A stretch of 24,000 nt of DNA from Infirmifilum sp. NZ (GCF_022693705.1 NZ_CP094288.1:798443-822442); one strand, 5' to 3'. Shown: positions 3,078 to 14,254, counted from the stretch's first letter. Numbers and translations: made by a program. The notes: generated by a model not told the origin, from the sequence alone.

Positions 3078-3179
3078 GGGCCGGTAGCTCAGCTAGGAAG
3101 AGCGACGGTTTGCCTAGCTCTGCTAGGTGAGTCGAGGCTTTTAACCCGTAGGTCCCGGGTTCAAATCCCGGCCGGCCCG
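3078..3179 (+). tRNA. tRNA-Lys(UUU) with a 28-nt non-canonical intron (3109..3136) in the anticodon stem (position 30/31)
   Basis: Acceptor GGGCCGG/CCGGCCC, D arm GCTC-AGCTAGGAA-GAGC, T arm CCGGG-TTCAAAT-CCCGG. Removing 3109..3136 gives anticodon arm ACGGG-CTTTTAA-CCCGT and a 74-nt mature tRNA. BHB: 4-bp helix CGAC(3103-3106)/GTCG(3131-3134), bulges GGT(3107-3109) and AGG(3135-3137), intron hairpin CCTAG/CTAGG. CCA is not encoded. Confidence 0.8.
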
Positions 3180-3325: not shown

Positions 3326-3423
3326 GGGCCCGTCGTCTAGCGGTTAGGATGTCGCCCTCACAAGGTAAGAGTAAGCACATCTGAGAGCGGCGGAGGTCCC
3401 GGGTTCGAATCCCGGCGGGCCCA
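3326..3423 (+). tRNA. tRNA-Val(CAC) with canonical 25-nt intron (3363..3387, position 37/38)
   Basis: Acceptor GGGCCCG/CGGGCCC, D arm GTCT-AGCGGTTA-GGAT, anticodon arm TCGCC-CTCACAc-GGCGG after splicing, T arm CCGGG-TTCGAAT-CCCGG; mature length 73 nt. BHB: CTCA(3357-3360)/TGAG(3382-3385), bulges CAA and AGC. Confidence 0.85.
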
Positions 3424-3537
3424 CCTTACTGAATGCGAATGATTAGCTGGACTATAAACCTAGCCGAAGCTAGTTGCAAGTAATATGGGGCACGTCTAGC
3501 GAAAAGCTGATAAGATTCCTCTGCATGATGGTGAGCA

Positions 3538-3636
3538 GCCCCGGTAGCTCAGACTGGTGGAGCGTCGGCCTTGTAAGGCCTTAGAGAAAGGGTTCGAGAA
3601 AGCCGAAGGTCCCGGGTTCGAATCCCGGCCGGGGCT
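3538..3636 (+). tRNA. tRNA-Thr(UGU) with canonical 25-nt intron (3576..3600, position 37/38)
   Basis: Acceptor GCCCCGG/CCGGGGC, D arm GCTC-AGACTGGTG-GAGC, anticodon arm TCGGC-CTTGTAA-GCCGA after splicing, T arm CCGGG-TTCGAAT-CCCGG; mature length 74 nt. BHB: CTTG/CGAG (one G-U), 3-nt bulges, intron helix GGCC/GGTT. Confidence 0.85.
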
Positions 3637-6672: not shown

Positions 6673-7271
6673 GTGGTCACAATTACAAAACAGCCGGTTT
6701 ACGAGATACAAAATGTGGTAGCCTCTGTAACTCTAAACCAACGTTTAGACCTAGAGAGAATAGCAGAGCGCATACCCCATGCTGAGTATAGCCCGGAACA
6801 TCCCAGGTCCCCGGACCTGGGATCCGAGAGTTCCCGGGGTTAGTGCTACGTCTGAACAGGCCTAAAACCGCTACGCTAATATTCTCTAGCGGGAAGATGG
6901 TTTGCACTGGAGCAAAGTCGGAGTCAGAGGTTAAAAAGGCAGTTAACAGCATAATAAAGCTCCTGAAGCAACACGGTATCGACATAAAGAACGAGCCGAT
7001 AGTTGAGATCCAAAACATAGTTGCAAGTGCAAACCTGAAGGCGGGAGTTGATCTCGAGAGAGCCGCGTTCTTGCTTGAAAACGCAATGTATGAGCCAGAG
7101 CAGTTTCCGGGGCTGATCTACAGGATGAGAGAGCCAAAAGTAGTTCTACTGATTTTCAGTAGCGGAAAAGTCGTGTGCACAGGCGCTAAAAGAGAGGAAG
7201 AGGTCAAAGAGGCTGTCGACAAGATATACAATATCCTCAAGGAACACGGTGTCCTGCTCGAGGAGGAGTAG
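6673..7271 (+). CDS. tbp: TATA-box-binding protein, interrupted by a 29-nt intron-like insert: join(6673..6799,6829..7271), 189 aa
   Basis: Segment 1 (frame of 6673) reads [42 protein letters not shown]. Segment 2 (the frame of track ORF 6843..7271, open from 6792) reads (Q)[34 protein letters not shown]. The second TBP repeat then follows: [66 protein letters not shown]. Removing 6800..6828 makes repeat 1 colinear with repeat 2 (EYSPEQFPGLV vs [11 protein letters not shown]). Without removal, segment 1 terminates at TAG 6841. Confidence 0.8.
6800..6828 (+). other. Candidate BHB (tRNA-type) intron within the TBP mRNA
   Basis: Central 4-bp helix CGGA(6794-6797)/TCCG(6823-6826). 3-nt bulges ACA(6798-6800) and AGA(6827-6829). 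Intron hairpin TCCCAGGTCC(6801-6810)/GGACCTGGGA(6813-6822). Cutting after the second nucleotide of each bulge removes exactly 29 nt and joins GAAC|AGTTC into GAA CAG TTC, which is in frame. Confidence 0.7.
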
Positions 7272-13768: not shown

Positions 13769-13907
13769 TAGGCGCTGCGACTAATTCAATTACCTAGCTC
13801 AGTTATTTAATCTTTTGGTCCGCACGTGATTAGTTTTCCGTATACGAGAAGATTGTGCAAGCCTTACTCGCGCTTTTAGGTTCAGGCAATAAGTGTACTG
13901 TTTAAGG

Positions 13908-14015
13908 CGCCCCGGCCGGGATTCGAACCCGGGTTCTGCGGCTCTCTGCCGGAGCTACCGGCGACAGGCCGCCACTCCAGGACAGGGTCTTCCTGGGCCA
14001 CTAGACGACCGGGGC
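13908..14015 (-). tRNA. tRNA-Asp(GUC) with two introns: 16 nt in the D-stem 3' strand (13975..13990) and 18 nt canonical 37/38 (13944..13961)
   Basis: The 108-nt precursor on the reverse strand is GCCCCGG-TC-GTCT-AGTGGCCCA-GGA[AGACCCTGTCCTGGAG]T-G-GCGGC-CTGTCG[CCGGTAGCTCCGGCAGAG]A-GCCGC-AGAAC-CCGGG-TTCGAAT-CCCGG-CCGGGGC-G. Removing both inserts gives a 74-nt cloverleaf whose D stem GTCT/GGAT is identical to that of tRNA-Val. Both inserts have 4-bp central helices (CCAG/CTGG and CTGT/GCAG) flanked by 3-nt bulges, with the cleavage sites in register. Confidence 0.8.
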
Positions 14016-14143: not shown

Positions 14144-14236
14144 GGGCCGGTAGCTCAGCTAGGTAGAGCGGCGGTCGCTCAGAACAGGCCGAGGCTCCAG
14201 ACCCGTAGGTCGGGGGTTCAAGTCCCTCCCGGCCCA
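14144..14236 (+). tRNA. tRNA-Trp(CCA) with a 19-nt non-canonical intron (14175..14193, position 30/31); 3' CCA encoded (14237-14239)
   Basis: Acceptor GGGCCGG/CCGGCCC, D arm GCTC-AGCTAGGTA-GAGC. After intron removal the anticodon arm is GCGGG-CTCCAGA-CCCGT; T arm GGGGG-TTCAAGT-CCCTC. BHB: CGGC(14169-14172)/GCCG(14188-14191), bulges GGT and AGG. Mature length 74 nt. Confidence 0.8.
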
Positions 14237-14254
14237 CCACTCCCTTTTTGGGAG

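Follow-up and report, generated by a model that had tools for sequence, protein, structure and literature searches.

The gene for the TATA-binding protein (TBP; gene tbp) of the heat-loving archaeon Infirmifilum sp. NZ lies in a stretch of 24,000 nucleotides (nt), termed here the window (GCF_022693705.1 NZ_CP094288.1:798443-822442, numbered from its first letter), and is interrupted by an insert of 29 nt that, with a probability put at roughly 0.88 on the strength of comparative sequence analysis, is a genuine, spliced intron of the tRNA-type, bulge-helix-bulge (BHB) class. An earlier note on the window had advanced it as a candidate. In the pre-mRNA, CGGA from the exon codons CCG GAA would pair with UCCG in the 3′ part of the intron to give a central helix of 4 base pairs (bp), flanked by the bulges AC/A and AG/A (a slash marks the predicted cut) and with a 9-bp hairpin on its inside. 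Each bulge would be cut behind its second base by the heteromeric splicing endonuclease of Crenarchaeota. Ligation of GAAC to AGUU by RtcB would then create GAA CAG UUC and with it a full TBP of 189 amino acids (aa); the intron set free would probably be circular. From taxonomy, the alpha2beta2 endonucleases of Crenarchaeota being known to accept relaxed motifs (PMC4090602), and from the abundance of introns in the tRNA genes of the window, we infer that the host has the broad-specificity (alpha-beta)2 enzyme. Relaxed motifs are reported to be cut by only two kinds of enzyme, the heteromeric endonucleases of Crenarchaeota and the epsilon2 type of ARMAN archaea (PMC4090602, PMC5829648). On the assumption of a single tbp copy, TBP synthesis appears to require the enzymes of tRNA splicing.

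Open reading frames (ORFs) and their translation place the TBP coding region at 6673-7271 on the + strand, as are all elements of the gene given below, and show it split over two frames, with the break at 6799/6800 and resumption at 6829. Exon 1 (6673-6799) has a GTG start and consists of 42 codons, ending ...AEYSPE in frame 0, plus C6799, the first base of a split Gln codon; it encodes the first part of TBP repeat 1 and matches positions 2-37 of Pfam TBP. The intron (6800-6828; ATCCCAGGTCCCCGGACCTGGGATCCGAG) is in phase 1 within that Gln codon, C/AG, in the conserved motif SPE-Q-FPGL of repeat 1. Exon 2 (6829-7271) supplies the AG of the Gln codon, continues with FPGLV... in frame +2 and ends with the stop TAG at 7269-7271. 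The earlier note was thus right that TBP is broken into two frames with the 29 nt of 6800-6828 between them, and equally so in two further respects: an unspliced reading from 6673 gives just a 56-codon ORF, ending at 6843, and removal of 6800-6828 joins GAAC to AGTTC as GAA CAG TTC, which recreates SPEQFPGLV. The 189-aa product of such a joining has two complete Pfam TBP repeats, of which the 142-aa and 56-aa ORFs are only fragments, and aligns free of gaps, junction included, with residues 10-184 of the Sulfolobus acidocaldarius TBP structure 1MP9. Among named proteins, that of Infirmifilum sp. NZ is nearest, with 99% identity. The 29-mer occurs once in the window, where no match is expected by chance. 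Gene order is thermosome, S26-type peptidase, tbp, acetyltransferase and periplasmic binding protein, and is identical in Infirmifilum lucidum.

The central helix, H, has its 5′ strand at 6794-6797 (CGGA, part of CCG GAA, the codons for Pro and Glu) and its 3′ strand at 6823-6826 (UCCG, intronic and non-coding), the pairs being C6794-G6826, G6795-C6825, G6796-C6824 and A6797-U6823. The 5′ bulge, A-C/A, occupies 6798-6800, with cleavage predicted after C6799, and the 3′ bulge, A-G/A, occupies 6827-6829, with cleavage predicted after G6828; the middle base of the latter is G, A or U among homologues. Inside lies the intron hairpin, h′ (6801-6822), in which 6801-6809 pair with 6814-6822 around a loop at 6810-6813. 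By sequence 6801-6810 are complementary to 6813-6822, which would make 10 bp, but an arm of that length would leave a 2-nt loop, which is unable to form, and the realistic hairpin is one of 9 bp. Hence, while the helix, the bulges and the pair C6793-G6830 drawn in the earlier note are all present, its 10-bp arm has to be shortened. A 56-nt region around the intron folds better than shuffled versions (z = -2.8).

Two 3-nt bulges on opposite strands with a 4-bp helix between them, the arrangement by which a BHB is defined (PMC4090602), are kept in 46 distinct sequences, and the inner helix h′ closes the 5′ bulge. The whole element spans 6793-6830 and includes the single outer pair C6793-G6830, which is CG in 46/46 sequences, both of its bases being also fixed by coding; positions beyond it are unable to pair, and helix h is essentially absent. 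Since the outer helix is missing, the motif is relaxed (HBh′-type) rather than strict, just as had been proposed before and as a pairing check on the alignment bears out. The predicted cleavage register had been likened to that of the tRNA introns in the window. For tRNA-Thr(UGU), 3538-3636, reading by hand confirms this: the register is the same, within a canonical hBHBh′ with bulges UA/A and AA/A.

DNA of relatives came from the contigs that encode the closest database TBPs and from a single metagenome scan with a pattern in which nothing but CCGGAAC upstream and the codons for FPGLV downstream was preset. A contig search with the spliced protein yielded the informative loci L001, L011, L022 and L029, the remainder being mostly distant TBPs. 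An insert at the same codon (SPE/QFPG) is present in 62 other loci, making 63 with the window, and is precisely absent in some relatives; an alignment of related genes at this codon had been called for in the earlier note. Two cultured carriers have complete genomes, Thermofilum pendens Hrk5 (CP000505.1), whose intron reads ATCCCGGGTCTCCGGACCCGGGATCCGAG, and I. lucidum (CP062310.1). There are 37 distinct introns, with lengths of 27, 28, 29, 30, 31 and 32 nt.

The BHB model was scored on an alignment of 46 distinct junction sequences, where 98.3% of the cells of the model are standard pairs. In the hairpin, 97.6% of cells are paired and all nine of the 9 pairs are doubly changed somewhere in the alignment. 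Compensatory (doubly changed) cells number 97, as against 25 +/- 5 in shuffles, none of the 500 shuffles reaching as high, and when partners are slid by 1-3 columns as a control, pairing falls to 5-53%. The pairs of helix H behave differently in that they hardly vary: CG, GC and GC are each found in 46/46 sequences and AU in 45/46, the sole exception being one A.G in the sequence type of L105, carried also by L133 and L135. On the intronic strand of H, CCG is invariant and U is present in 45/46. Both 3-nt bulges are likewise kept in homologues, and neither the intronic strand nor the 3′ bulge was set by the metagenome search pattern. This conservation of the non-coding UCCG and of the bulges holds despite synonymous sites being near saturation (proportion of synonymous differences, pS, about 0.85). 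On the exon strand, the Pro-Glu codons are CCG GAA in all intron-bearing genes versus 4/56 intronless TBPs.

In all 37 variants, cleavage behind the second base of both bulges gives GAA CAG TTY (EQF). Two variants have U or G as third base of the 5′ bulge, and in these the invariant Gln codon would be lost if the cut were displaced by a single base. Read-through in frame is not possible for 28 introns of length other than 27 or 30 nt, and 12 introns of 27 or 30 nt contain an in-frame stop codon. A covariance model built from 47 sequences (R1) scores 60.8 bits at 6800-6828, its sole match in the window.

Several observations weigh against a spliced BHB intron. The outer helix of 1 bp leaves the 3′ bulge unclosed on its outside, which departs from the strict hBHBh′ form, and the 5′ strand of H was preset by the pattern of the metagenome scan; the seven lineages found via proteins rather than by that DNA pattern, and so unbiased by it, also show CCG GAA. 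The exact spliced proteins of the window, I. lucidum, T. pendens, L082 and L105, looked up with several starts, are absent from a collection of 15 billion proteins, in which, among the proteins looked up exactly, only the 56-aa unspliced ORF is present. A further difficulty is a competing fold (6795-6834), in which an exon-exon helix is formed by GGAAC (6795-6799) and GUUCC (6830-6834), the hairpin is extended by A6800-U6823 and stacked on this helix, and CCGAGA (6824-6829) is left as a 6-nt 3′ bulge. It is this fold, not the BHB, that is returned both as minimum free energy structure of the single sequence and as RNAalifold consensus, and by nearest-neighbour energies at 37 C it is the more stable in 46/46 sequences. 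The fixed A, not G, at the wobble position of the Glu codon and the U.G or G.U found at 6800/6823 in two lineages also fit it better. At 80 C the two conformers are about equal, the BHB being equal or better in 25/46. The folds are mutually exclusive and each is made of invariant bases; the invariant intronic CCG, however, is explained only by the BHB fold. Both may matter, and the exon-exon fold could be a conformational switch or a plain by-product of the coding sequence.

The loops of the hairpins have a feature of their own. All 23 distinct introns of 27, 28, 30 and 31 nt have a stop codon in the apical loop in the frame of exon 1 (TAG in 17, TAA in 5, TGA in 1; examples are L029:3103-3139, L107:1628-1666, L119:2304-2343 and L116:3552-3587). 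Its position in the loop varies and its frame is constant, and the other two frames have stops in only 6 introns. The 29-nt class, to which the introns of the window, I. lucidum and T. pendens belong, and the single 32-nt intron have no loop stop, the loop of the window (6810-6813) among them, and in these two classes the unspliced frame stops in exon 2, 42-78 nt downstream of the junction. The loop stop may have been selected as a means of ending translation of unspliced mRNA, or may belong to a loop motif.

Other accounts of the insert have to accommodate selection on both sides of it. Across 49 distinct intron-bearing genes the ratio of nonsynonymous to synonymous differences per site (pN/pS) is 0.166 for the core of exon 1 (33 codons) and 0.161 for exon 2, with pS at 0.83-0.86, and between the window and I. 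lucidum exon 1 has 15 synonymous and 0 nonsynonymous changes. Exon 1 must therefore be read by ribosomes in the frame of TBP in every one of these lineages. Pseudogene and assembly artefact are excluded by the same token, with both exons under purifying selection at near-saturated synonymous sites. A 29-nt palindromic insertion that had inactivated tbp while another copy worked, or an error of assembly or sequencing, would account for the broken frame and for annotation pipelines calling fragments only, and the earlier note had named both a decaying pseudogene and an artefact as concerns; yet both exons are open, the insert recurs in 63 independently assembled loci, those of the two complete genomes included, its structure covaries, and the best 120 TBP matches (down to about 60% identity) hold no other Infirmifilum or T. 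pendens TBP, so that the chance of this being the answer is negligible. Translation of exon 1 could in principle be continued without RNA splicing, by programmed frameshifting or by ribosomes bypassing the hairpin as in phage T4 gene 60. A stable hairpin does stand directly after a potential take-off codon, GAA (6796-6798) and GAG (6828-6830) in the window could be read by one tRNA-Glu, and cbf5 introns had formerly been taken for frameshifts (PMC2738675). Against this, ribosomes would meet an in-frame loop stop in 23/37 introns, the putative landing codon is unconserved (its first base is mostly G, otherwise A or U), the hop would remove the invariant Gln, and, because insert lengths span 27-32 nt, a different shift would be needed for each length class; the invariant UCCG/CGGA pairing and the two 3-nt bulges would be left unexplained, and bypassing is accordingly a very improbable answer. 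No better are the prospects for a TBP assembled from two polypeptides of about 50 aa and about 142 aa, like the products of split genes in Nanoarchaeum, with the hairpin as an intercistronic element. Two ORFs are called, each matching Pfam TBP, and a GTG is available at 6843 in the window, but the break falls inside a codon in the middle of repeat 1, the second piece lacks a conserved start (several lineages have CTC GTC or CTT GTC for Leu-Val), the C-terminal tails of the first piece are variable out-of-frame sequence, and neither the BHB geometry nor the fixed CCG GAA is explained.

A proposal of a different kind, to be regarded as possible though unlikely, accepts splicing and adds regulation to it: switching between conformers, or the availability of the endonuclease and the ligase, would adjust the amount of TBP, with the loop stop limiting translation of unspliced mRNA. 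It draws on the two mutually exclusive conformers, each from invariant bases, on the agreement of the non-BHB conformer with the fixed wobble base of GAA and with the covariation at 6800/6823, on the in-frame loop stop in all introns of 27, 28, 30 and 31 nt, and on long retention in an essential gene. The intron has, however, been lost without apparent consequence in Thermofilum adornatum and other lineages, the 29-nt class, the window included, does without a loop stop, and coding is a second constraint on the invariant exon bases. More speculative still is the suggestion that the TBP intron is a post-transcriptional control point of global transcription in Thermofilaceae, at which TBP synthesis depends on endonuclease and RtcB activity and on the switch between BHB and exon-exon fold, with the loop stop disposing of ribosomes on unspliced mRNA, the whole being an archaeal analogue of XBP1/HAC1 splicing.

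Carriers of the intron are T. pendens Hrk5, I. lucidum, Infirmifilum sp. NZ and many uncultured lineages known from metagenome-assembled genomes (MAGs) and metagenome contigs; Infirmifilum uzonense probably also carries it, judged from its truncated annotation of 141 aa. In the T. adornatum lineage (L150, L153, L155), the TBP of which clusters with that of T. pendens at 90% protein identity, tbp is uninterrupted at the exact codon (TCG CCT GAG CAG TTC), as it is in L001 and a large group of TBPs labeled ‘Thermofilaceae archaeon’. The codons at the site in the intronless T. adornatum lineage and L001 are other than CCG GAA, being CCT GAG and CCA GAG. A neighbor-joining tree of spliced and intact proteins, a rough method applied to a short protein, puts the intronless groups inside a broad intron-bearing clade. 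The simplest reading of these sequences is an old gain within Thermofilaceae followed by several precise losses, as proposed for cbf5.

A dispersed or mobile repeat was considered and rejected, a regular-expression scan of 1.02 Mb having found the intron solely in tbp, and model R1, run on 547 kb of related loci and, with filters off, on the window, having found it in tbp only and once per locus. A full-length database protein (P0001; 189 aa, 85% identity) was rejected as the product of a spliced transcript: it is genomic, with neighbors on its contig, and belongs to the intronless T. adornatum lineage. Eleven matches of the metagenome scan that have a gap of 19 nt come from other lineages, whose TBPs are intronless and contain CCGGAAC by coincidence in another frame, and the metagenome matches L100 and L112 are also due to chance. 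Three TBPs of 272-275 aa (P0002, P0003 and P0037) are three-repeat proteins of other organisms and irrelevant to the intron. As a separate matter, the middle repeat of these three, which are encoded on ENA contigs, nearly duplicates a neighboring one, and the proteins could represent genuine triplications or artefacts of assembly at the internal repeat. In L083 (272-324) the thermosome gene is split into two ORFs, which was discarded as an intron case, the cause being a run of N at a scaffold gap. In the ‘Thermofilum sp.’ locus L082:1870-2000 (identical in the MAG loci L083-L089 and L096) the only canonical start in the exon 1 frame upstream of the conserved motif YEIQN is a GTG directly before it, in the context KRGGSIAREP-V-YEIQN.

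The interruption has left its trace in the databases. The closest database proteins are N-terminally shortened TBPs of 138-153 aa, from Infirmifilum sp. NZ, I. lucidum, I. uzonense, T. pendens and ‘Thermofilum sp.’ MAGs, with P0013 and P0045 among the shortened annotations. RefSeq models of 149 aa begin inside the intron (MREFPGLV..., from ATC at window position 6822), and likewise in I. lucidum and T. pendens; the 142-aa models of GenBank begin at the Val codon of GLVLRL. Exon 1 of I. lucidum is annotated as a 56-aa ‘hypothetical protein IG193_06115’ (QOJ78335.1). Such fragment annotations are located at 6822-7271 and 6673-6843 in the window, and at L081:1831-2429 and L151:2501-2929. Recognition of the intron would correct a systematic annotation error, by which TBP has been deposited as a piece of 141-153 aa for Infirmifilum sp. 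NZ, I. lucidum, T. pendens Hrk5 and dozens of MAGs, as well as, probably, for I. uzonense.

The natural point of comparison is the intron in the pre-mRNA for the pseudouridine synthase Cbf5 of Desulfurococcales and Sulfolobales, reportedly the subject of work by Watanabe in 2002 and Yoshinari in 2006, and treated in PMC2738675 (Yokobori 2009). Both introns are short (19-31 nt among the cbf5 introns listed there), lie inside coding sequence, have an unconventional or relaxed BHB structure, and follow the rule of cleavage after the second bulge base given there for cbf5; a heteromeric crenarchaeal endonuclease, likely also for tbp, patchy gain and loss, and mis-annotation as two ORFs or a frameshift are further features in common. 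The hosts differ, an RNA-modification enzyme versus a general transcription factor, and there is no sequence relationship. Moreover, the tbp intron is found in Thermofilaceae, and Table 1 of the same paper lists Thermofilum cbf5 as intronless. A further difference is that splicing of cbf5 is experimentally confirmed, whereas that of tbp is deduced from sequence; according to PMC2738675, splicing was unconfirmed for any gene but cbf5 as of 2009. By 2020, cbf5 was the only other BHB intron reported in archaeal mRNA besides the 5′-untranslated-region (UTR) intron of that same report (PMC7714728). The contention of the earlier note that cbf5 holds the sole established protein-coding BHB intron agrees with both papers, and an intron in tbp finds no mention in the literature searched, that search being incomplete. 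On the sequence evidence, tbp would be the second gene, after cbf5, to host a BHB intron in its coding sequence.

Archaeal tRNA BHB introns (hBHBh′ and relaxed hBH/HBh′ motifs; Marck & Grosjean 2003, as given in PMC4090602) share with the tbp intron the 4-bp helix, the two 3-nt bulges and, in the case of tRNA-Thr(UGU) of the window, the cleavage register, and the length of the tbp intron is near that of the nearby tRNA inserts (25-32 nt). They differ in that the tRNA anticodon stem serves as outer helix where tbp has a single pair; in tbp, further, the exon half of helix H consists of codons and the host RNA is translated. The 5′-UTR BHB intron of Haloferax volcanii HVO_1309 resembles it as an mRNA substrate of the archaeal splicing endonuclease, and its removal is linked to efficient expression (PMC7714728); a difference is its position in the untranslated leader, with the reading frame uninterrupted. 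At a greater distance, with no homology involved, stand XBP1 and HAC1 of eukaryotes, whose splicing pathway is mentioned in PMC13149111. In likeness to tbp, each encodes a transcription factor and has in its mRNA a short intron that shifts the frame and is excised by a protein endonuclease, with the tRNA ligase joining the exons; the differences are that the enzyme is IRE1 and not EndA, that the sites are two stem-loops and not a BHB, and that XBP1 and HAC1 splicing is stress-regulated. By way of background, these introns are very short (26 nt in XBP1) and non-spliceosomal, cutting by IRE1 is at structured sites and joining is by RtcB or Trl1. H. volcanii, for its part, is a euryarchaeon with a homodimeric endonuclease.

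After cbf5 had stood alone since 2002, a second case in an unrelated essential gene would mean that BHB introns in mRNAs are no one-gene curiosity. It would also put a general transcription factor downstream of the tRNA-splicing machinery, a dependency not known to have been considered before in archaeal gene expression. The 37 variants, together with the precise losses, constitute a natural data set on the recognition of relaxed BHB motifs and on intron gain and loss.

Elsewhere in the window, a tRNA-Cys(GCA) of 78 nt called by ARAGORN at 13906-13983 on the - strand is below the Rfam gathering score for tRNA and has no plain cloverleaf fold; it may contain a non-canonical intron or be a mis-call. 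Four tRNA genes, at 3078-3179, 3326-3425, 3538-3636 and 14144-14239, have inserts of about 20-32 nt. To the last of these (93-96 nt) ARAGORN assigns no anticodon, and in the other three the inserts sit, by Rfam, in the anticodon region.

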